From contig CAVPUL010000002.1 of the NCBI GenBank assembly GCA_963708875.1, positions 406,598 through 470,597 of the forward strand: a DNA stretch of 64,000 bases, read 5' to 3'. The notes beneath the pieces were generated by a model. The model was not told where the DNA came from, made no database searches, and was given only the letters and a program-made list of their open reading frames with translations. Origin of the DNA: an uncultured Actinomycetota bacterium. Lineage in GTDB: Bacteria > Actinomycetota > Actinomycetes > Propionibacteriales > Nocardioidaceae. The position numbers and the translations under genes are program-made. Position 1 is the first letter of the stretch. Every line of letters starts with the position of its first letter. Below are positions 18,690-33,746 of this stretch, in pieces.

Positions 18690-19595
18690 TCACGCCTCGA
18701 AGACGTCCCCCAGCTCCGCGACTCGTTCCAACACCTGGGCAAGCGTGAACTGGTCGAGCGCGAGCTCGTCCTCGGCTCCTTCCTCGACCTCCTCCCACGT
18801 CAGCGGGGTCGCGACGGTGGGGCGCTCCTTGCCGCGCAGGGAGTACGGCGACACGGTCGTCTTGGACCCGGAGTTCTGCGACCAGTCGAGGAAGACCTTG
18901 CCCGGGCGCTTCGCCTTGGTCATCACGCTCGTGACCAGGTCGCCACGCTCCTTCTGCAGCGTCTCGGCCACCTCCTTGGCCAGTGCCGTGGTGCCCTCGC
19001 TGTCGAGGCTGTCGTCCCCTGTGTCCGGCATGGCGGCGTAGAGGTGGAGGCCCTTGCTGCCGCTCGTCACCGGCGTACAGCCCAGGTCGCGCTCGGCCAG
19101 CGCGTCGCGCACCATCAGCGCCACCTGCGCGCACTCGTGCAGTCCGGCGGGTTCGCCCGGGTCGAGGTCGATGACCAGCCGGTCGGGGTGGCGCGGGGTG
19201 CCGTCCTCCTCGACGGTCCACTGGTGGACGTGCAGCTCGAGGGCGGCGAGGTTGGCCAGCCAGGTGAGGGTGGCGAGGTCGTCGCAGATGGGGAAGCGGA
19301 TCGTGGTGTCGCCCTTGCCCGAGCGCGAGCCGGTCGTCGGGACCTCGACCGTACGCACCCAGGACGGCGTGCCGGCCGGTGCGTTCTTCTCGAAGAAGCT
19401 CGCCTTCTCCACCCCGTGCGGCCATCGGATCCGGGTGACGGCGCGGTCGACGAGGTGGGGCAGCAGCACCGGCGAGACCTGCGCGTAGTAGTTCAGCACC
19501 TCGCCCTTGGTCGTGCCCGTGCGCGGGTAGAGCACCTTGTCGAGGTTGCTGATCGTGAGGGTGCGGCCCTCGACGTCCACCTGCAGCTCTGTCAT
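18690..19595 (-). CDS. NHEJ primase-polymerase (stand-alone LigD POL domain)
   Basis: ISNLDKVLYP, FFEKNAP, DRLVIDLDPG, TSGSKGLHL and YSLRG motifs. Confidence 0.92.
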   Translation of the reverse strand: MTELQVDVEGRTLTISNLDKVLYPRTGTTKGEVLNYYAQVSPVLLPHLVDRAVTRIRWPHGVEKASFFEKNAPAGTPSWVRTVEVPTTGSRSGKGDTTIRFPICDDLATLTWLANLAALELHVHQWTVEEDGTPRHPDRLVIDLDPGEPAGLHECAQVALMVRDALAERDLGCTPVTSGSKGLHLYAAMPDTGDDSLDSEGTTALAKEVAETLQKERGDLVTSVMTKAKRPGKVFLDWSQNSGSKTTVSPYSLRGKERPTVATPLTWEEVEEGAEDELALDQFTLAQVLERVAELGDVFEA

Positions 19596-20515
19596 GCCAG
19601 ATCCTCCGGGGCCAGGTCGTCGCGGACGCCCTGGAAGGACGGCTGCCGCAGGCGTTCGTACCCCAGGCCGTGGGTGTCGATGTCCACGACGACGCGCGGC
19701 TCGACCCAGAACGTGCCGTCGGCATCCACCCGCGGCACCTCGTCGGCGAACGGGTTGTCGTCGCTCGTCAGCGGTGCCAGCAGGTCGGCGAGGCGCTTGC
19801 TGGTGGCGCCGGCGATGCCGCTGCCGACCCGGCCGCGGTAGAGCAGGCCGTCGGGGGTCTGCTCGCCGACCAGCAGCGCGGCCAGCCGGTTCGTCGTACC
19901 GACCTGGGGGCGCCAGCCGCCGACGACGAACGAGCCACGGTGCCGGTGGGCGAGCTTGCGCCAGTCCTCGCTGCGGGCGTCGAAGCGGTAGCGCGACGTA
20001 CGCCGCTTGCTCACCACGCCCTCGAGCCCCTGCTGCAGCGTCGCGTCGAACAGCATGTCGCCGTCGTCGTAGGCACCCGGGACCTGCCACGTCGTGTCGC
20101 CGAGCGGGAGCTCCTCCAGCAGCGCACGGCGCTCCTCGAGCGGGCGGCCGGTCAGGTCCTCGCCGTCGAGGCGGAGCAGGTCGAACACCATGAGCGTCGC
20201 CGGCACCGTCTTCACGAGCCGCGCGACCTCCTTGGCGTTGCGCAGGTGCATGCGGTGCTGGAGGACGCGGAAGTCGGGCACGCCGCGGTCGTTGAGGGCG
20301 ATGACCTCGCCGTCGACGAGCAGGTCGCGCATCCCCAGCGGCGGATCGCTGAGGTCGGGCCAGGCCGCCGTCACGTTGTTGTCGTTGCGGCTGGTCATCC
20401 TCGCGACGCCGTCACGGACGTCGACGAGGACGCGTACGCCGTCCCACTTCACCTCGTGCAGCCACTGCGCGCCGCTCGGGACGCGGTCTGTCTTGCTGGC
20501 GAGCATCGGGCGCAC
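19592..20515 (-). CDS. ATP-dependent DNA ligase (stand-alone LigD ligase domain)
   Basis: EVKWDGVR (motif I), DGEVI, EGVVSKR and LRQPSF motifs; probable start GTG 20515. Confidence 0.92.
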   Translation of the reverse strand: MRPMLASKTDRVPSGAQWLHEVKWDGVRVLVDVRDGVARMTSRNDNNVTAAWPDLSDPPLGMRDLLVDGEVIALNDRGVPDFRVLQHRMHLRNAKEVARLVKTVPATLMVFDLLRLDGEDLTGRPLEERRALLEELPLGDTTWQVPGAYDDGDMLFDATLQQGLEGVVSKRRTSRYRFDARSEDWRKLAHRHRGSFVVGGWRPQVGTTNRLAALLVGEQTPDGLLYRGRVGSGIAGATSKRLADLLAPLTSDDNPFADEVPRVDADGTFWVEPRVVVDIDTHGLGYERLRQPSFQGVRDDLAPEDLA

Positions 20516-20589
20516 GCGGTCAGTCTGGCATCCCGTCGCGAGCACCTGGAGGGAGACGAGTGTCTGATGTGACGGCTATCGTCTCGACC

Positions 20590-21531
20590 ATGCGAGCGAT
20601 CTGGAAGGGTGCCGTCTCCTTCGGCCTGGTCAGCGTCCCCGTGAAGCTCTACGCCGCGACCGAGAGCCACGACGTGTCGTTCCGGCAGGTGCACGCCAAG
20701 GACGGCGGCCGGATCAAGTACCAGCGGGTCTGCGCCCTCGACGGCGAGGAGGTGGCCTACGCCGACATCGCCAAGGGCTATGAGACCGAGGACGGCGAGA
20801 TGGTCATCCTCACCGACGACGACATGGCCGAGCTGCCGTCGACGTCGTCGCGCGAGATCGCCGTGGAGAAGTTCGTGCCGCGCGAGCAGATCGACCCGCT
20901 GCTCTTCGAGAAGTCCTACTACCTCGAGCCCGAGGGTGCCGGCGCCAAGCCCTACGCCCTGCTGCGCCAGGCGCTGCTCGACGCCGACCGGATGGCCGTC
21001 GTGACCGTGGCCCTGCGCCAACGCACGAGCATCGCGGTGCTGCGGGTCAAGGACGACGTCATCGTGCTCCAGACGATGATGTGGCCCGACGAGATCCGCA
21101 CGCCCGACTTCTCCGTCGAGCCGGGCGACGTCAAGCCGGCCGAGGTCAAGATGGCCCACATGCTCGTCGACACGCTCGCCGGCGACTTCGACGCGAGCGA
21201 GTTCGAGGACGACTACGCCGGTGCCGTCGAGGCGCTCGTGAAGTCCAAGATCGAGGGCGGTGAGATCAAGCGCACCGAGACCTCGACCAAGACCTCGGGC
21301 GAGGTCGTCGACCTCCTCGCGGCGCTGCAGAAGTCGGTGGCCGCCGCGAAGACCGCCCGCGGCGAGGACTCCGACGACGACAAGGCGGCTGCCACGAAGT
21401 CGTCGACTGCGAAGAAGGCCCCCGCCAAGAAGGCCCCCGCGAAGAAGACCGCGACCAAGAAGACGGCCGCGAAGAAGACGGCCGCGAAGAAGACCGCGAC
21501 GAAGAAGGCTCCGGCCAAGAAGGCCAGCTGA
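20590..21531 (+). CDS. ku: Non-homologous end joining protein Ku
   Basis: MRAIWKGAVSFGLVSVPVKLY and VVDLLAALQKSV motifs; basic C-terminal tail. Confidence 0.96.
   Translation: MRAIWKGAVSFGLVSVPVKLYAATESHDVSFRQVHAKDGGRIKYQRVCALDGEEVAYADIAKGYETEDGEMVILTDDDMAELPSTSSREIAVEKFVPREQIDPLLFEKSYYLEPEGAGAKPYALLRQALLDADRMAVVTVALRQRTSIAVLRVKDDVIVLQTMMWPDEIRTPDFSVEPGDVKPAEVKMAHMLVDTLAGDFDASEFEDDYAGAVEALVKSKIEGGEIKRTETSTKTSGEVVDLLAALQKSVAAAKTARGEDSDDDKAAATKSSTAKKAPAKKAPAKKTATKKTAAKKTAAKKTATKKAPAKKAS
21412..21525 (+). repeat. Imperfect 15-bp coding repeats (KKAPA/KKTAA) in the Ku tail
   Basis: KKAPAKKAPAKKTATKKTAAKKTAAKKTATKKAPAKKA. Confidence 0.85.
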
Positions 21532-22467: not shown

Positions 22468-23917
22468 TCAGCAGGCGCGGGCCACCGCCCTGTGGCGCGT
22501 CATGTCGCGCAGCAGCGCCGACACCTCGGCCGCCACGGCTACAGCGAGGTCGCGTGCGGGTTCACCGTCGACCTCCGGCACCACGTGCCGCACGATCCCG
22601 TCAGCGAGGAGGTCGGTCGCGCGGACGCGCTGTCGCTCGCGCCATCTCCGGGGCGTGGTCGACGTCGCCGTGCACGATCACGCTGGCGCCCTCGGGCGGG
22701 AGCGGCGCGAGCCAGGCGTGCTCGGTCGCGATGACGGAGCGCGCGGGCAGGAACGCCAGCGCCCCTCCCCCGCAGCCCTGGCCGAGGATGACCGAGACGG
22801 TCGGGACCGTCATCGTCGTCAGCGTCGCGATGCAGCGGGCGATCTCGCCGGCGATGGCGCGCTCCTCCGCATCGGGCGACAGCTCGGCGCCCGGGGTGTC
22901 GATCACCGTGACCAGAGGCAGTCCGAGCTCCTCGGCCAGGCGCATGCCGCGGCGGGCCTCACGCAGTGCGCCCGGGCCCATCGCGTGGCCGGGCGTCTGG
23001 CGGGCGCGGTCCTGACCGACCACGACGCACGGTTGGTCGTCGATCCGGGTGAGCGCGACCATCACCGTCGAGTCCCGCTCGCCCTCGTCGGTGCCGCGCA
23101 GCTGGATCGTCCCGGTCGCGCCGTGCGCGAGGAGGTCGCGCAGGCCGACCCGGTCCGTACGGCGGGTGCGCTCGATGCTGTCCCACGCGCTGCCCGACCC
23201 CACCGATCGCGAGGCGCGGACGGGCAGCCGGCCCGGGCCGGGCGCATCGACCAGCACGGCCAGCGCGAGGTCGACCATCTCGGGCAGGTCCTCGGCGGCG
23301 ACGACGCCGTCGATGACACCGACGGCGGCGAGGTTCTCCGCGACCTGCACGCCGGGACGGAACGGCCGCCCGTGGAGCGCCTCGTAGACCTTGGGTCCGA
23401 GGAAGCCGACCAACGCGCCGGGCTCGGCCACCGTGACGTGCCCGAGCGAGCCCCACGAGGCGTAGACGCCGCCGGTCGTGGGGTGCCGCAGGTGCACGAG
23501 GTAGGGCAGGCCGGCGGCCCGGTGGTCCATCAGTGCGCGGGAGATCTCGGCCATCCGGACGAAGGCGGGCGTGCCCTCCTGCATCCGGGTGCCGCCGGAC
23601 GCCGTGCTGGCCAGCAGCGGCAGTCCCTCGGCGGTGGCACGTCGTACGGCAGCAGTGATCCGGTCCGCGGCGGCGCGCCCGATCGAGCCGGCGAGGAAGC
23701 CGAACTCGTTGACGACGACCGCGACCGGCCGGCCACGGACCTCGCCGCGGCCGGTGAGGACGGACTCGTCGGTGCCGGCCTTGGCGGCGGCGCCCTCGAG
23801 GACCGCGCGGTAGGCCGGATCCACCGACGAGAGGTCGATCGGCTGGTCCCACGACTCGAAGGTCCCTGCGTCGAGCACCAGGTCGAGGAGCTCGTGCGCC
23901 GACCAGCGACGCGTCAT
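22468..23917 (-). pseudogene. Fused beta/alpha acyl-CoA carboxyltransferase (AccD3-like), frameshifted near the C-terminus as assembled
   Basis: FLAGSIG, SGGTRMQEG, PTTGGVYASWG, VIDTPGA and GQGCGGGALA motifs. Removing one base at about 22639 gives MAERQRVRATDLLADGIV, ending at TGA 22468. Confidence 0.85.
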
Positions 23918-25087
23918 CCCTCGCCCACCCAGGCCCGGATCTCGTCGGCGTGCTGGTCGAGCAGCGGCGGGGCCGTGTGGTCGCGACGGGTGACCTCGGC
24001 ACCGGCCGCGTCGAAGAAGCGCAGCGGCGGTCCGGGGAGCGTGATGTCGCCGAGCGTCGGGTGGTCGACGTCGACGAGCAGGCCCTGGCTGGCGACCTGG
24101 TCCCACTCGTAGACCTCGTCGAGACTGCGCACCTTGCCTGCCGGTACGCCGACCTCGGCGAGCCGGGCCAGCAGGGGCTCGGCGTCCCAGTCGGCGAAGG
24201 CCGCCTCGACGACCTCGATCACCTGCTCGCGCCGGGCGACCCGCTCCTGGTTCGTGCCGAGTCCGTCAGCCTCGGGGTCGAGCCCGAAGCCGCCGCAGAA
24301 CCTCTTCCACAGTCCCTCGCTGCCGAGCGCGATCTGCACCGCGCCGTCGCGGCAGCGGAAGAGCCCGTAGGGCGCGATCGACGGGTGGTGGTTGCCCTGC
24401 GCGCGGCCGACCTCGCCGGCCACGGTCCAGCGGGTGCCCTGGAACGCGTGCACCCCGACGCACGAGGCCAGCAGCGACGTCCGCACGACCGTGCCCTTGC
24501 CGGTCTCGTGGCGCTCGTGGAGCGCGGCGAGGACGCCGTAGGCGCCGTACATCCCGGACAGCAGGTCCGCGATCGGTACGCCGACGCGCTGCGGGTCGTC
24601 GGGCCCGGAGCCGGTGAGCGACATCAGGCCGGCCTCGCCCTGGGCGATCTGGTCGTAGCCGGCGCGGCCGCCCTCGGGACCGTCGTGGCCGAAGCCGGTG
24701 ATCGAGAGGACGACGAGCCGCGGGTTGCGACGCATCAGCTCCTCGATGCCGAGGCCGAGCCGCTCGAGGACGCCGGTGCGGAAGTTCTCCACCAGCACGT
24801 CGGCCTTCTCCACGAGCCCGACCAGGACGGCCTTGTCGGCCGTCGTCCTTGAGGTCGAGCGCGATCGACTCCTTGTTGCGGTTGGTGCACAGGAAGTAGG
24901 TCGACTGGCGGGCGTCGGGCTCGCCGACGAACGGCGGCCCCCAGCCGCGGGTGTCGTCCCCGCTGCCGGGCGCCTCGACCTTGATCACCCGGGCGCCGAG
25001 GTCACCCAGCATCTGGGTGGCGTGCGGCCCGGCGAGGGCGCGGGTGAGGTCGACGACCAGGAGGTCGGAGAGAGGTCCGTTGCTCAT
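23914..25087 (-). pseudogene. CoA-transferase family III (CaiB/BaiF), frameshifted as assembled
   Basis: [32 protein letters not shown] and YDQIAQ motifs. Removing one base at 24840-24841 joins the two ORFs. Confidence 0.88.
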
Positions 25088-25091
25088 GCGA

Positions 25092-26411
25092 TCACCATCC
25101 CGGGAGGACGAGGGCTGCCCAGACGAGCAGCGGCCCGACGAGGGTGACGATGACGCCGTAGCCGAGGATCTGCTTGTAGTAGGTGCTCTCGTCGATGGTG
25201 TCCGGCCTGTTGGCCAGCATCAGCGCACCGTTGGTGCTGAACGGGCTGACGTCCACGATGGTCGACGACACGGCGAGAGCAGCCACGAAGAGCGCCGCGT
25301 TGATCCCGCCATCGGCGATGAGTGGCACGCCGATGGGGATGATCACCGGCAGGAGCGCCGTGGACGAGGCAAAGGCCGAGACGACACCACCGACGTAGCA
25401 GAGGATCAGGGCACCAATCACGGCCGCGCCGAACCCGGCAGCCCACTTCCCGACGAACTCGGGCGAACCTGCAGTGGTGAGGATGGTGGCGTAGGTGCTG
25501 ATGCCGGCGACCAGGAGCACGGTCGGCCAGGCGATCTGCTTGACCGCGTCCTTGTGCTCGTCGGCATTGAGCATCGCCAGGATCACGGCGGCCGTGATCG
25601 CCACGAAGCCGATGTTCTTGTCGAAGGCGAGGGAGATGAGCGCGACGCCGACGAACGCGACGAGGGTGAGGACCTGGTCGCGGCGTACGCCGTGCGCCTG
25701 GGTGCCGGTCGGGGCGGACGTGCCGTAGCCGCGGGCCGGCACGGTCGCGCCGCCGCGGTGGAGGTCGTCGTCGAGCGTGTCGGGCTCGTCGGGGTCGATC
25801 CGCATCGCCATCAGCTTGCGGCCGCCGAGGGCGACGAAGAGGATCATCGCCATGATCGTGTTGACGATGAGGCTGGCCAGGAAGACGGTGATCTCGCTCG
25901 TGGGGAGACCGGCGTCCTCCATCACCGAGTTGGTGATGACGCCGTAGATGCTGATCGGCGAGAAGCCGCCGGCCTGGGCGCCGTGCACCACGAACATGCC
26001 CATCATCAGCGGGCTGATGCCGTAGCGACCGGCGAAGCCCAGCGCGATCGGGCCGATGATGGCGCAGGCGGCGGGACTCACGGCACCGATGCCGGTGAGG
26101 ACGGCGGTCACGGCGAACATCACCCACGGGATCAGGGCCACGCGTCCGCCGACCCCGCGGACAGCCGTACGGACGATGAGGTCGACCGTCCCGTTGTTGC
26201 GCGCGATCGCGAAGAGGTACGTGACGCCGATGAGCGTGAGGATCAGGTCACCGCTGACGCCGGCGAGGATCTCCTTCTCGTCGAGGTCGAGTGAGTACAT
26301 CCCGACGAGCCACGCGGCGACGTAGGCCAGCGCTCCCATGTTGATCGGCAGCAGCGTGCCGACCACGAACAATGCGACGAGGGCGATGATCGCCACCCAT
26401 TCCGGACCCAT
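25092..26411 (-). CDS. Dicarboxylate carrier, MatC/SLC13-like permease
   Basis: N-terminus [21 protein letters not shown] resembles MatC_N; [11 protein letters not shown] motif; about 11 TM segments. Confidence 0.8.
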
Positions 26412-26469
26412 GCCGAACCTCCGAGTCGATGCCGCACGGCGTGGACCGGGGGTGACCCTCGTCACGTGC

Positions 26470-26490
26470 TTGGCTCAGTGGCCTAGCCAA
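26470..26490. promoter_or_regulatory. Candidate FadR/GntR operator
   Basis: TTGGCT-N9-AGCCAA inverted repeat between the divergent matC-like and fadR genes. Confidence 0.5.
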
Positions 26491-26526
26491 TAGGACAATG
26501 AGCCGCGAGTCAATAGGCTGTCCGGC

Positions 26527-27228
26527 ATGAGCGAGTCGTTCCCTCCCCGGTTGCTGCGCACGCGACTCTACGAGCAGGTCGCCGGGCAGATCTCGTCGTG
26601 GATCAGCGACAACGGCCTCAAGGCCGGGGACCGGCTGCCCGCCGAGCGCGAGCTCGCCCAGCGGCTCGGCGTCAGTCGCGCGACGCTCAGCCAGGCCCTG
26701 GTCGCCCTCGAGGTGATCGGTGTCGTCGAGGTGCGCCACGGCGACGGCACCGTCGTGACGTCGGGGCACCGGCAGTCGACCCGCATCGTCGAGGCGATCC
26801 GCAGTCATGCCGACCGCCTCCCCGAGATCATCGAGACCCGCGACGCGCTCGAGACCAAGATCGCCGCGCTGGCCGCCGTACGACGCACCGACGACGACCT
26901 CGCCCGCATCGACGACGCCCTCGCCTTCATGGCGTCCGAGGTCGAGTCCGGCGATCGCGGCGTCGAGGGCGACGAGCGCTTCCACGGCGCCGTCACCGCG
27001 GCCTCGCACTCGCTCCTGCTCGCCCGGCTGATGGACGAGATCGGCGACCTGATCCGGGAGACGCGGCTGGAGTCCCTCGGCCAGCCCGGGCGGCCGCAGG
27101 ACTCCCTCGCCGGTCACCGCGCCGTCGCCGATGCCATCCGCGCCGGCGACGCCGAGGCCGCCGCCGCGGCGATGCACGCGCACGTGGCGATGGTCAGCGA
27201 CGTCGCCCTGCTCCGCGACCAGCCGTGA
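26527..27228 (+). CDS. FadR/GntR family regulator (FCD domain)
   Basis: GDRLPAERELAQRLGVSRATL and DERFH motifs. Confidence 0.95.
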   Translation: MSESFPPRLLRTRLYEQVAGQISSWISDNGLKAGDRLPAERELAQRLGVSRATLSQALVALEVIGVVEVRHGDGTVVTSGHRQSTRIVEAIRSHADRLPEIIETRDALETKIAALAAVRRTDDDLARIDDALAFMASEVESGDRGVEGDERFHGAVTAASHSLLLARLMDEIGDLIRETRLESLGQPGRPQDSLAGHRAVADAIRAGDAEAAAAAMHAHVAMVSDVALLRDQP

Positions 27229-27995
27229 CCGCAGGCGAGCTGCTGCTGGTCCTGGTGACGGGCTTCGCGGCCGGCGTGCTGTCCTCCACGGTCGGCGTCG
27301 CGTCACTCCTCAGCTTCCCCGTGCTGGTCGCGCTCGGGCTTCCGCCGGTCGTCGCCAACGTCTCCAACACCCTCGGCATGATCCCCGGGGGCGTGGGTGG
27401 CGTCGTCGGCTACCGCCAGGAGGTCACGGAGGCGGGTCGGCTCGCGTACGTCATCTCGATCGTGTGTGCCCTCGGAGCGGTGGTCGGCGCCGCCCTCCTG
27501 CTCGGGCTGCCACCCGGGGTCTTCGAGGCGATCGTGCCCTACCTCATCCTCTTCACCTGCCTGCTCGTCGGCATCCAGCCGAGGGTCGCCGCGTGGCTGC
27601 GCGCACGCCACGAGCGGCGGCACGGCGAGCAGCTCGCCGAGCGGCGGAGCATGTCCCCCACGACGACGGCGTTCGCGACCGTCACCGGCGTCTACGGCGG
27701 CTACTTCGGCGCGGGCGCCGGCGTGATGATGGTCGCCGTGCTCGGCCTCGGCACCGACGTCGAGCTGCGCATCGTCAACGGCCTGAAGACGCTCTCGTTG
27801 ATGGTCGGCAACCTCGTCGCCGGGCTCATCTTCATCGTCGTCGCCGACCCGCGGTGGGATGTCGTGGCGCTGCTCGCCACGGGCTCGCTCGTGGGTGGGT
27901 ACGTCGGCGCGCGCATCGGCCGCAAGCTCCCCGACAAGGTCTTCCGGTGGGCCGTCGTCGCCGCCGGGCTCGTCGCCGCGCTACTGCTGTTCTGA
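27225..27995 (+). CDS. TauE/SafE (DUF81) family membrane protein
   Basis: Start GTG 27225 overlaps the fadR stop; GVYGGYFGAGAG motif. Confidence 0.88.
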   Translation: MTAGELLLVLVTGFAAGVLSSTVGVASLLSFPVLVALGLPPVVANVSNTLGMIPGGVGGVVGYRQEVTEAGRLAYVISIVCALGAVVGAALLLGLPPGVFEAIVPYLILFTCLLVGIQPRVAAWLRARHERRHGEQLAERRSMSPTTTAFATVTGVYGGYFGAGAGVMMVAVLGLGTDVELRIVNGLKTLSLMVGNLVAGLIFIVVADPRWDVVALLATGSLVGGYVGARIGRKLPDKVFRWAVVAAGLVAALLLF

Positions 27996-28865: not shown

Positions 28866-28887
28866 CAGGACAGGCCCATCAGGACAG
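28860..28887. repeat. Perfect 14-bp tandem duplication at the gdh/SDR junction
   Basis: GCCCATCAGGACAG x2 (28860-28873 and 28874-28887). Confidence 0.9.
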
Positions 28888-31800
28888 CAGGCCGCGCACC
28901 ACGCGGAGGCCGACCGAGAGACGTGCCAGCTCGGCGGTCTCCTCGCGGCAGATCTCCTCCAGCGTCTCGGCCGAGCGGCCGACCAGCTCCCGGTCGGAGT
29001 CCTCCCACGCGGCCACGCGTGCCGGGGCCGGATCGTCCGGGCTGGTCGACTCCAGCACCTGGGCAGTGAGCTGCTGGTGCACGCCGTAGAGGTCGTCGCG
29101 CACGGCCGCCCGGGCCATCGTCTGCCAGCGGTCGTCGCGCGGCAGCGCGAAGATCCGCTCGACCAGGGCCGGGAGGCCGAGCCGCTCACCGAGGGCGTAG
29201 TGGACGCGGGCCACCTCCACCGGGTCGACCCCGAGCCGGTCGCCGGTCTCCACCATCCCGAGCACGGCGTAGGCCGGGGCCAGTCCGGCGACGTGGGACG
29301 CGAGGCCGGCAGGCACGCCCTGGGCGCTGAGGCGCGACTCCCGGGCGAGGTAGTCGTCGAGCTCGCGACCGCTCATGACCGAGGGCAGCTCGGCCATCAC
29401 GGCCTGCACCCGCTCGCGGAAGAAGTCGACCGTGGCCTGCGAGTCGAGGGGCGGTCGCCGGTTGGTCACCAGCCACCGCGACGCGCGCTCGACGAGCGTA
29501 CGCATCTCGATCCGCATCCGGGTCTGGCGCTCGGCCGGCACCTGGTTGTCCAGCGCGGCGATCTCCTGGCGCAGCGCCAGCGACCCGAAGATCTCGCGGG
29601 CGACGAAGTTGGCGCGGGTCAGGTCGGCCGGGCTCGCGCCCGTCTCCCCCTGCAGCCGCGGCCAGAAGGTCATGCCGGCGCCGTTGACGAGGTCGTTGAC
29701 GACCTGGGTCACGATGATCTCCCGGCGCAGCGGGTGGTCCTCGATGGCCTCCTGGAGGTCCGGCACCATCTGTTGCGGGAAGTAGGCCAGCAGGTCCTCG
29801 CGCAGGTAGGGGTCGTCGGGCAGGTCGGACTCGATCAGCTCGTCGGCGAGCACGATCTTGGTCCACGCCAGCAGCACCGAGAGCTCGGGTGCCGACAGCG
29901 CCTGCTTGCGGTCGAGACGACGCCGCACCTGACGGGTCGAGGGCAGACCCTCGAGCTCGCGATTGAGCACGCCGCGCTTCTCGAGCGCGCGCATCCACTC
30001 CTCGTGGACGTGCAGCAGCGAGGGGGCGTGCGCCTCGGCGTTGGCCAGCGCGAGGTTCTGCTCGTAGTTGTCGCGCAGCACCAGGGAGCCGACGTCGTCG
30101 GTCATCGCGGCGAGCAGCTCGTTGCGGCCCTCCTCGTCCATCGAGCCCGCACGGACGACGCGATCGAGGAGGATCTTGATGTTGACCTCGTGGTCGGACG
30201 TGTCGACGCCGGCGGAGTTGTCGATGAAGTCGGTGTTCATCCGGCCGCCGTGGCCGCCCGCGCCGTAGCGCGCATACTCCACCCGACCGAGCTGGGTGAA
30301 GCCCAGGTTGCCGCCCTCACCGATGCACTTGGCCCGCAGGTCCTCGCCGTTGACCCGGATCGAGTCGTTGGCCTTGTCACCGGCGTCGGCGTTGGACTCC
30401 TCCGACGACTTCACATAGGTGCCGATGCCGCCGTTCCACAGCAGGTCGACGGGGGCGAGCAGGATCGCCTTCATCAGCTCGGCGGGCGTCATCGCGGTGA
30501 CGTCCTTGCCGAGACCCAGCACCTCGCGCACCTGCGCGGAGACCGGGATCGACTTCGCCGAGCGCGGCCACACACCGCCGCCCTCGGAGATCAGCGAGGT
30601 GTCGTAGTCCTTCCAGCTCGAGCGTGGCAGGTCGAAGAGCCGCTGGCGCTCGGCGTAGGACGGCGCGGCGTCGGGCGCCGGGTCGATGAAGATGTCGCGG
30701 TGGTCGAACGCCGCGACCAGGCGCGTGTGCTCGGAGCACAGCAGACCGTTGCCGAAGACGTCACCGGACATGTCGCCGATGCCGACGGCCGTGAAGTCCT
30801 CGGCCTGGCAGTCGACACCCATCTCGCGGAAGTGGCGCTGCACCGAGACCCAGGCGCCCTTGCGCGGTGATGCCCATCGCCTTGTGGTCGTAGCCGACCG
30901 AGCCGCCGGAGGCGAACGCGTCGCCGAGCCAGAAGCCGTAGTCCTTGGCCACCCCGTTGGCGATGTCGGAGAACGTCGCTGTGCCCTTGTCGGCCGCGAC
31001 CACGAGGTAGGAGTCGTCACCGTCGTGGCGTACGACCTCGCGCGGCGGCACCGTGGCCCCGTCGACGAGGTTGTCGGTGATGTCGAGCAGGCCGGAGATG
31101 AACGTCTTGTAGCAGTCGATGCCCTCGGCCAGCCACGCGTCGCGGTCGGCGGGGTCGGGCAGCTGCTTGCAGAAGAACGCACCCTTCGCGCCGACCGGCA
31201 CGATGACGGTGTTCTTCACCATCTGCGCCTTGACCAGGCCGAGCACCTCGGTGCGGAAGTCGTCTCGCCGGTCCGACCAGCGCAGGCCACCTCGCGCGAC
31301 GGCGCCGAAGCGCAGGTGCGAGCCCTCGACGCGCGGGCTGTAGACGAAGATCTCGTAGCGCGGTCGCGGCTCGGGCAGGTCGGGGATCGCCGACGGCTCG
31401 AGCTTGAAGGACATGTACGGGTGGATCGCGCCGTCCGCGGTCCGCTGGAAGAAGTTGGTGCGCAGCGTCGCCCGGACCAGCGTCCGGTAGGAGCGCAGGA
31501 TGCGGTCGTGGTCGAGGCTGACGACGTCGTCGAGCGCCCTCGCGAGCCGCTCCTCGATCGCCTCCACCTTGGCGACGCGCGCCTCGGAGTCGGCGTCGAG
31601 GACCCGGTCCGCGTGGCGGCCCGGGTCGAAGCGCGACTCGAACAGCTCGACCAGCAGGCGGGTGATGTCGACGTTGCTGCGCAACGCCTCCTCGATGTAG
31701 TCGAGGGCGAAGGGCGAGTTGCCCTGCTTGAGGTACTTCGCGTAGGCGCGCAGCACGGTGGCCTGGCGCCAGGTCAGGCCGGCGGCGAGGACGAGCTGGT

Positions 31801-33746
31801 TGAACCCGTCGATCTCGTTGTAGCCGTCCCACACCGCACGCAGCGCCTCTGCGAACAGTGTCCGCTCGTGGGGCTGCAGCACGCGGCCGTGGCGCAGCCC
31901 GAACTCGTAGATGTACGACGGCCGCGACAGGCCGAGCAGCTCGTACGGTCGCTCGTCGACCACCTCGACGCCCATCGAGGTGAGCATCGGCAGCACGGTG
32001 CTGAGCGACAGCGGGGCGCCGACGCGGAAGACCTTGAGCCGCGACTCGCCGCGTCGGTACTCGCCGCCCTCCTCGTCCTGGTCGAACAACGCGAGGTCGA
32101 TGCCCTCGGTGCCCTCGATGGCCTCGATCCGACCGAGGTCGGCCGAGCCGCGCTGGGGCGTGTAGTCCTCCTTGTAGGCCTCCGGGTAGGCCTCGGCCCA
32201 TGCTCTGGCCAGGCGCGGCACCCTCGCCCTCGCCGTGCTCGTTGACCACGGCGGTGACGAAGTCGTCGCGCCACGAGCGGGACGCCTCGGTGAGCCGGCG
32301 CTCGAGGTCGGGGACGTCGATCTCGGGGATGCTCTCGCCCTTGGGCGGGTGCACCACGAAGTGCACCCGCGCCGTGGTCGACTCGTTGACGCGAGCGGTG
32401 AACTCGACGTGCTCGCCACCGAAGTCGTCGCGGAGGATGTCGGAGAAGCGCTCGCGCACGGCGGTGCTGTAGCGATCGCGGGGCAGGTAGACCAGGACCG
32501 AGACGTAGCGCCCGTAGGTGTCGCGGCGCACGAACGCCCGCAGCTGGCGTCGCTCGCGCGCGAACATCACGTCCTGCGCCACCGGGGCCAGCTCGGCCGG
32601 CGAGGTGTGGAAGAGCTCGTCGCGCGGGTAGTTCTCGAGCGTGTCCATCAGCGCCTTGCCCGCATGGCTGCGCGGGTCGAAGCCGGCCCGGCTCATCACC
32701 TCGCGCACCTTCTCGCGCAGCACCGGGATCCGGGTGACCGACTCGGTGTAGGCGGCGCTGGAGAAGAGGCCGAGGAAGCGGCGCTCGCCGACGACCTGGC
32801 CGTCCTCGCCGAACGTCTTGACGCCGACATAGTCGAGGTACGCCGGCCGGTGCACGGTCGCGCGCGAGTTGGCCTTGGCGAGCACGAGCAGCGTCCGCTC
32901 GCGGGCCTTGGCCTTGGCGATCGGCGGCAGCTTGGCGAACGCGCTCGACAGATCCTGGTCGTGGCGCAGGATGCCGAGGCCGGAGCCGGGCACGGCCCGC
33001 AGGCCGCACTCGTCGGGCTCGTCCTCGTCGGCCTCGAGCTGGTACTCCCGGTAGCCGAGGAAGGTGAAGTGGTCGTCGGCCAGCCAGGTGAGGAAGTCGC
33101 GGCCCTGGCGGACCTCGGCCTCGCCCAGCGGCGGCGGGGCGTCGGTGAGCTCGGTGACCACCGCCAGGACCTTGTCGTGCATCTTGGCCCAGTCCTCGAC
33201 CGACTCGCGGACGTCGCGCAGCACCCGCTGGACGCCCTCGGTGATCTCGGTGGCCTCGTCGTCGTCGGTGCGGTCGATCTCGACGTGCATCCAGGACTCG
33301 ACGACGTCGTTGTCGCTCTGCGCACCGTCGATCACCTCGTGGGCGTGCACGTGCTGGAGCTGGCCGGTGATGTCGCGCTCGACGGCGAGCTGCGGGTGGA
33401 TCACCGCGTGCACGTTGTGACCGAGCCGGTTGAGCTCCATGGTCACCGAGTCGACGAGGAACGGCATGTCGTCCGTGACGACCTCGACCACCGACCGACC
33501 CGCGGACGACCAGCCGGACCCGGCCACGGTGGGCGTCACGACGCGTACGGCTGAGGTGCCCTGCGGACGCGAGGAGGCGAGCTCGCGGTGCGAGGTGAGT
33601 GCGCCGAACAGGTCCTCGGGCGAGCGCTCCGCGACCTCCTCAGGGGCCACGTGGCGGTAGTACGCACGGAGCAGGTCGCCCCATTCGGGCCGCGCCCGCG
33701 TCGCCTCGTCGAGCTGCTGGTCCTTGGTCTCCTCGGGCGTCGCCAC
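28879..33746 (-). pseudogene. gdh: Large NAD-specific glutamate dehydrogenase (about 1620 aa), two frameshifts as assembled
   Basis: DDMPFLVDS, RGGLRWSDRRDDFRTE, AADKGTATFSD, GYDHKAMGIT and TDFIDNSAGVD motifs across three frames; single extra bases at about 32217 and about 30862. Confidence 0.92.

Follow-up and report, generated by a model that had tools for sequence, protein, structure and literature searches.

A MatC, CoA-transferase and AccD3-type carboxyltransferase operon in a Nocardioides-type actinomycete, and its proposed role in malonate utilisation

The stretch of DNA analysed (the window, 64,000 nt; positions 406,598 to 470,597 of contig CAVPUL010000002.1, assembly GCA_963708875.1) contains a five-gene cluster built around a fused AccD-AccA-type carboxyltransferase (CT). 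The host is an uncultured actinomycete with a Nocardioides-type genome of 4.02 Mb (97.6% complete). Three of the genes lie on the minus strand: those coding for a 439-aa MatC-family dicarboxylate carrier (25092–26411; PF07158, E = 3.9e-54, and PF03600), a family III (CaiB/Frc-type) CoA-transferase (23914–25087; PF02515, in two pieces), and the CT itself (22468–23917; PF01039 plus PF03255). The products are proposed to act as a malonate importer, a malonate CoA-transferase and a malonyl-CoA decarboxylase, respectively. Divergent from them, on the plus strand, are the genes for a GntR/FadR-subfamily regulator, for which a MatR-like role is proposed (26527–27228; PF00392 plus PF07729), and for a TauE/SafE-family anion transporter (27225–27995; PF01925). 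A first-pass annotation of the window, made from its letters alone, had described this same ATGA-coupled operon divergent from fadR and tauE, and all five genes were indeed present. The CoA-transferase and CT reading frames share an ATGA at 23917–23914, the fadR and tauE frames share a GTGA, and the matC stop lies 4 nt ahead of the CoA-transferase start.

In the assembly, the CoA-transferase and CT genes each carry a +1 frameshift (at ∼24840–24845 and ∼22630–22640, respectively), with one surplus base compared to the intact genes of Nocardioides alpinus; the frameshifted CT was read through to the stop at 22468. Single-base indels are also found outside the cluster, for example in a gene for an NAD-glutamate dehydrogenase (window 28879–33746) that is broken over several frames. 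Since unrelated conserved genes of the same assembly carry such indels, both frameshifts are, raw reads aside, probably sequencing or assembly errors, and a cluster-specific pseudogene was disfavoured for the same reason. Among 46 probed loci there were seven frame switches, some of them perhaps probe artefacts. The two enzyme genes are 92–95% identical to intact orthologues, which replaced the window genes as queries in the homology searches.

The CT scored below every NCBIfam cut-off for AccA, AccD, MdcD and MdcE, and its matches to the accD and accA profiles began at positions 58 and 56, respectively. In the E. coli complex, the zinc ribbon and N-terminus of AccD, together with the N-terminal helices of AccA, dock biotin carboxylase and the biotin carboxyl carrier protein (BCCP) (PMC11160672). 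Judged by these match limits, neither the N-terminus and zinc ribbon of AccD nor the N-terminal helices of AccA are present in the CT, which is therefore without the E. coli-type binding parts for biotin carboxylase and BCCP. The AlphaFold model of an intact orthologue (pLDDT 96) showed a two-domain carboxyltransferase fold in a single chain, beta half followed by alpha half, with TM scores of 0.74–0.78 to the beta subunit of propionyl-CoA carboxylase and to transcarboxylase 12S. The atlas fold search returned unannotated relatives only. The resemblance to mycobacterial AccD3 pointed out in the first-pass annotation held up: the CT is 57% identical to a Mycobacterium lacus protein whose gene is divergent from an EchA6-type gene, and which stood in for M. 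tuberculosis Rv0904c in all AccD3 comparisons (in M. tuberculosis, accD3 adjoins echA6). In a quick, midpoint-rooted tree, the CT fell into one clade (138 rows, SH-aLRT 96) with the mycobacterial echA6-locus copies, separate from the Streptomyces CTs linked to matB and from fused CTs linked to biotin carboxylase. Over 93 CT sequences the acyl-CoA oxyanion motif G149-G150 was invariant, and the element needed for decarboxylation is therefore kept; the roles of this and of the biotin-side Gly-based motif were taken from 10.64898/2026.02.06.704326. The site that reads GA(Y/F/N)PG in fused CTs with the zinc ribbon, an aromatic-PG motif taken as a correlate only, reads GAELS, GAALS or GPALS in the AccD3 type and GAAND in the Streptomyces type. 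The literature on Rhodococcus and Corynebacterium 'accD3' was set aside, as it concerns a different gene, that of the mycolic-acid carboxyltransferase. The genome holds a second, stand-alone AccD3-type CT (contig C5, 475311–476732; 60% identity), near a 2-oxoacid dehydrogenase operon, a setting repeated in other Nocardioides. At three loci (L211–L213), a distant fused CT lacking the zinc ribbon lies downstream of a thiamine pyrophosphate-dependent enzyme and an FAD-linked oxidase, that is, in the context of another pathway.

No biotin carboxylase gene was found within 6–7 kb at any of the ∼200 loci with CTs lacking the zinc ribbon, this cluster included, which bears out what had been read from the window alone. 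In contrast, fused CTs that have both the zinc ribbon and GA(Y/F/N)PG were accompanied by a biotin carboxylase gene within ∼750 bp at all eight loci with flanks, and at one more (L206); these CTs may be a single clade. Classical malonyl-CoA decarboxylase (MCD; PF05292) gave no match in this genome, nor in any of the mycobacteria searched, and of 301 Actinomycetota genomes just two had a match. MdcA was not found either, and the genome has no close MatB (the best match to Streptomyces MatB was 35%).

The nearest solved relative of the CoA-transferase is human succinate-hydroxymethylglutarate CoA-transferase (E = 2e-79). The Asp at the catalytic position is aligned (codon at 24565–24567), and the nearest characterised relatives use succinyl-CoA as donor. 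The protein scored below the cut-offs of all named equivalogs. Of 17 longer homologues, nine carried CoA-transferase and CT domains in one chain, seven of them with near-complete parts, and with 32–78% identity in the CT part; one (P0310) joins this type of CoA-transferase to a Streptomyces-type CT. The four fusions looked up were intact genes adjoining GntR/FCD regulators; at some of these loci MatC is replaced by ABC or MFS transporters. Read-through across the ATGA overlap could account for the close fusions as artefacts, an explanation less apt for the distant ones with longer linkers. AccD3-clade CTs were found fused to the CoA-transferase only, never to biotin carboxylase or BCCP.

The survey of AccD3 homologue neighbourhoods proposed in the first-pass annotation was made on two samples, the 80 closest CT loci and 100 CT loci drawn class-wide, and found the cluster to be conserved. 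Among the closest loci, the CoA-transferase gene lies immediately upstream of the CT in 60, and MatC and FadR are both present in 52. TauE was found in 51 of these 80 loci versus one of the class-wide 100, and is thus a local, lineage-specific addition. Class-wide, the CoA-transferase was present at 48 loci (immediately upstream of the CT in 41) and MatC at eight, while in metagenomic CoA-transferase loci the CT was the next gene in 48 of 63. Since MatC and TauE are rare class-wide while the CoA-transferase stays frequent, the core unit is the CoA-transferase plus the CT, the carrier and regulator being one setting among several. At five loci (L118, L122, L164, L042 and L056), matC lies immediately upstream of the CT with no gene for an activating enzyme between them; in the first two of these genomes the CoA-transferase is encoded elsewhere. 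A few mycobacteria, such as M. rutilum, hold an extra AccD3-type copy within a full operon. In M. smegmatis, a second AccD3 homologue, MSMEG_2169, is four locus tags away from the 230-aa FadR regulator Ms2173 (MSMEG_2173), described in the literature as a copper-responsive global repressor; judged from the locus tags in the literature, this region may be the same operon. The cluster is flanked in the window by genes for non-homologous end joining (Ku and a split LigD, polymerase and ligase; 18690–21531), as it is in close Nocardioides relatives.

Two independent contexts make malonate the best-supported substrate, which narrows the earlier proposal that an imported dicarboxylate is activated by the CoA-transferase. 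The first is provided by Streptomyces, in which a fused CT lacking the zinc ribbon adjoins an acyl-CoA synthetase gene in 15 of 18 loci, four of which also contain MatC and FadR. The one synthetase tested was MatB (match to PDB 3NYQ, E = 7.5e-262). The window FadR is 53–55% identical to the regulators of the Streptomyces matB clusters, and its MatC 46–60% identical to their MatC. With layout, regulator and operator shared and MatB in place of the CoA-transferase, the two activating enzymes appear to fill the same slot. The second context is barbiturase, which converts barbiturate to ureidomalonate, which in turn gives malonate. In 24 of the 100 class-wide loci, the CoA-transferase and CT genes adjoin a barbiturase gene and usually also one for carbamate kinase. 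The barbiturase tested matched the Rhodococcus enzyme 5HWE (E = 7e-208), whose C-terminal motif is common to all 19 clustered barbiturases. Across 401 genomes, the CoA-transferase was present in 108, barbiturase in 98, and both in 92, compared to 26 expected if independent, a purely descriptive comparison given that kin are not independent. In Nocardioides, the two enzymes occurred in the identical 16 of 25 genomes, also where unlinked. In the present genome the barbiturase cluster is on contig C1 (96000–112900), without a CoA-transferase/CT pair, and contains genes for a CoxG-like protein, an amidase, hydantoinase/oxoprolinase A and B, carbamate kinase and barbiturase. No obvious ureidomalonase was seen in the barbiturase clusters inspected, that on C1 among them, which suggests for the latter that malonate is reached by phosphorolysis, with malonamate as intermediate. 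A full-text literature search for barbiturase together with carbamate kinase gave no match.

The intergenic region contains a candidate operator. The nearest profile models of FadR were LldR, NanR and PdhR, all below cut-off. The inverted repeat first taken as its operator, TTGGCT-N9-AGCCAA (26470–26490), is present, and is the sole copy in the genome. However, over 60 loci only positions 26479–26488 were nearly invariant, while the outer left arm was conserved in part (T26470 in 11 of the 60). The 21-bp palindrome was therefore rejected in favour of a 15-bp pseudo-palindrome, A-x-TGGC-N3-GCCA-x-T (26477–26491), accompanied by a weaker, overlapping half-site (26471–26476). This box, too, occurs only once in the genome. 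Five of six mycobacterial operons have a second copy of the box ahead of the CoA-transferase gene, and the Streptomyces mat clusters have it in near-perfect palindrome form with the same TGGC-N3-GCCA geometry, which fits boxes predicted for the FadR subfamily, for example TGGTAAGACCA (PMC2018728). The sequence GTCAA-TANNNT was followed, after 6–7 nt, by the fadR start codon in 49 of 66 loci. This indicates that the fadR transcript is leaderless, with TANNNT (26514–26519, plus strand) as its predicted -10. Back to back with it is a conserved minus-strand TTGAC (26509–26513), -35-like for matC. A strict sigma-70 and terminator scan called neither promoter nor terminator. As the box sits where the -10 region of matC is expected, part of its conservation may be that of promoter sequence.

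From the genes and folds, the conservation, co-occurrence and fusions described, and the loss of the docking elements, we infer a substrate, a reaction direction, independence from biotin and a mode of regulation. The cluster is, in our judgement, likely to serve malonate utilisation on free CoA, by import, CoA-transferase activation and biotin-independent decarboxylation. MatC would import malonate, and the CoA-transferase would move CoA onto it from acetyl-CoA or succinyl-CoA. The AccD3-type CT would then convert malonyl-CoA to acetyl-CoA and CO2 without biotin, as MdcD-MdcE can (PMC5534430). With acetyl-CoA as the donor, the scheme would be a catalytic cycle converting malonate to acetate and CO2, while succinyl-CoA would lead to net acetyl-CoA. 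FadR would repress both divergent promoters via the 15-bp box, and the two enzymes would also clear the malonate that the cell itself forms when pyrimidines are broken down via barbiturase, a route encoded on another contig. A broader proposal is made more tentatively, the chances being somewhat against it: that the CoA-transferase and CT, at times fused in one chain, together make up a two-domain malonate decarboxylase cycling on free acetyl-CoA with no need of ATP, acyl carrier protein (ACP) or biotin, and that AccD3-type proteins, that of M. tuberculosis included, are the unrecognised malonyl-CoA decarboxylases of Actinomycetota, a phylum almost devoid of the classical MCD family.

Several observations weigh against this reading of the operon. 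Most mycobacterial AccD3 genes have neither CoA-transferase nor carrier genes as neighbours, and 58 of 143 genomes with the CT, including most mycobacteria, contain no CoA-transferase; a role for the stand-alone AccD3 would therefore follow by homology only. Fifteen of the 63 metagenomic CoA-transferase loci have no adjacent CT. Mycobacterial MatC paralogues, which probably serve other acids, adjoin PrpF-like genes and LysR regulators at six loci (L247–L251 and L257), so that MatC alone is not diagnostic of the substrate. Further points of this kind concern the biotin-side motif, the biotin carboxylases of the genome, the genomes without a decarboxylase and the frameshifts.

The main substrate could instead be another malonate-type acid handled by the same logic (methylmalonate from thymine, malonamate or ureidomalonate from barbiturate, or an alkylmalonate), an alternative that we regard as unlikely, if the strongest of those considered. 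The co-occurrence of the CoA-transferase with barbiturase is tighter than that with the CT or MatC, and the barbiturase clusters inspected, with their carbamate kinase, hydantoinase-like genes and amidases, may yield an intermediate other than free malonate. In addition, the CT is but 32–35% identical to the MatB-linked Streptomyces CTs, and falls in a separate clade. However, the Streptomyces clusters combine this kind of regulator, operator and MatC carrier with a true MatB. The CoA-transferase is moreover retained in genomes without a decarboxylase, as would fit malonyl-CoA as its product, which fatty-acid synthesis can use directly.

Slightly less probable again is a biotin-dependent CT that works in trans with a BCCP or biotin carboxylase encoded elsewhere, and that either acts as a carboxylase or transfers the carboxyl group of malonyl-CoA to biotin. 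The fold is that of a normal two-domain CT, and both Gly-based oxyanion motifs are kept, the biotin-side one (GQGCGGGA) with G383 in 89 and G384 in 83 of the 93 sequences. Since this Gly-Gly motif is retained, biotin independence is beyond proof from sequence. Further, at least five biotin carboxylases are encoded elsewhere in the genome, mostly adjoining other CTs, and one might serve as a partner in trans. Against this stand the loss of the docking zinc ribbon and N-terminal segments, and the biotin carboxylase counts near the two kinds of CT (none at ∼200 loci versus nine out of nine). The fusions to the CoA-transferase, with none to biotin carboxylase or BCCP, argue likewise, as do pull-downs with M. 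smegmatis AccD3, which showed no AccA partner (PMC4347857).

The operon might, with still lower probability, serve mainly to salvage malonyl-CoA for lipid or polyketide synthesis, with the CT as an overflow valve or an unrelated housekeeping enzyme. About one fifth of the CoA-transferase genomes (23 of 108) have neither an AccD3-type CT nor MCD, nor was a Streptomyces-type CT found in these 23, such that decarboxylation is not obligatory; malonyl-CoA may go straight to fatty-acid synthesis in them. An alternative decarboxylase was looked for where the CT is missing and none was seen at the 13 metagenomic and 20 genomic loci inspected. Many CT copies, moreover, stand alone, among them most mycobacterial AccD3 and the C5 copy of the present genome. 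The CT is nevertheless tied to the CoA-transferase by translational coupling, by adjacency in close and distant loci alike (60/80 and 41/100), and by repeated fusions. Finally, that the operon has decayed in this strain, the two frameshifts being real, is highly improbable: the assembly does show the two enzyme genes out of frame, but the unrelated glutamate dehydrogenase gene has similar indels, identity to intact orthologues is high, and the operator and promoters are intact.

If malonate is indeed used as proposed, the operon would account for the final steps, hitherto missing, of oxidative pyrimidine breakdown in roughly a quarter of the Actinomycetes genomes sampled, would give a name to a malonate CoA-transferase subfamily, and would represent a malonyl-CoA drain bearing on the lipid and polyketide supply of actinomycete production strains. 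AccD3 is the sole mycobacterial carboxyltransferase without a partner or a function. It is dispensable for lipid synthesis in M. smegmatis (PMC5311964), and a paper of March 2026, in which it is still unexplained, held that a CT domain may be lacking from it (PMC13012033). The model and comparisons presented here show a complete two-domain CT, and the question becomes directly testable as malonyl-CoA decarboxylation without biotin. Between about 1979 and 1984, the Kolattukudy group reportedly purified avidin-insensitive malonyl-CoA decarboxylases of ∼45 kDa from M. tuberculosis H37Ra and Saccharopolyspora erythraea. As the search of mycobacteria gave no classical MCD, these activities have AccD3/MatA-type CTs as candidate sources. 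No literature was found on a family III malonate CoA-transferase, on AccD3-type CT decarboxylases or on a link to barbiturase, the literature on barbiturase gene context having been covered in part.

Among known systems, E. coli AccD/AccA gave the best PDB sequence matches to the CT and shares both oxyanion motifs. Unlike these proteins and the fused CTs linked to biotin carboxylase, the CT has no zinc ribbon or AccA N-terminal helices, reads GAELS for GA(Y/F)PG, and has no adjacent biotin carboxylase or BCCP gene. As in MdcACDE, a transferase step would be coupled to decarboxylation by a CT fold, and MdcD-MdcE takes malonyl-CoA in vitro (PMC5534430). However, no MdcA was found, the CT is a single chain that scored 65 bits against the MdcD cut-off of 278 and 22 against the MdcE cut-off of 237, and free CoA would replace the dedicated ACP. 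Mycobacterial AccD3 (Rv0904c, MSMEG_5642) is likewise a fused beta/alpha CT of the same clade with no biotin carboxylase neighbour, although its gene adjoins echA6 rather than a CoA-transferase or carrier gene.

The rhizobial system, matABC/matR of Rhizobium leguminosarum bv. trifolii, is similar in its MatC-family carrier and adjacent GntR-type regulator (divergent in the present cluster) and, as far as it is described by An and Kim 1998 as cited in PMC6491548, in the presumed logic of malonate to malonyl-CoA to acetyl-CoA. It differs in that activation there is by the ATP-dependent MatB, absent from this cluster, and would here be by the family III CoA-transferase; in addition, the decarboxylase candidate is a crotonase-fold CT and not a GNAT-like MCD of the PF05292 family such as MatA (PMC3701320). 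The Streptomyces mat cluster (the sco2443–sco2445 region of S. coelicolor, with MatB = PDB 3NYQ) shares layout, regulator, MatC and operator geometry with the present one, and also has a fused CT lacking the zinc ribbon with no biotin carboxylase nearby. The differences are the CoA-transferase in place of MatB, a CT from a separate clade (32–35% identity) and the addition of tauE. The S. coelicolor CT has been named 'MatA, a malonyl-CoA decarboxylase', without data of its own and citing only the Rhizobium paper (PMC6491548). Malonate import, CoA activation and decarboxylation are already known from rhizobia, and the route proposed here is a variant of mat-type malonate catabolism.

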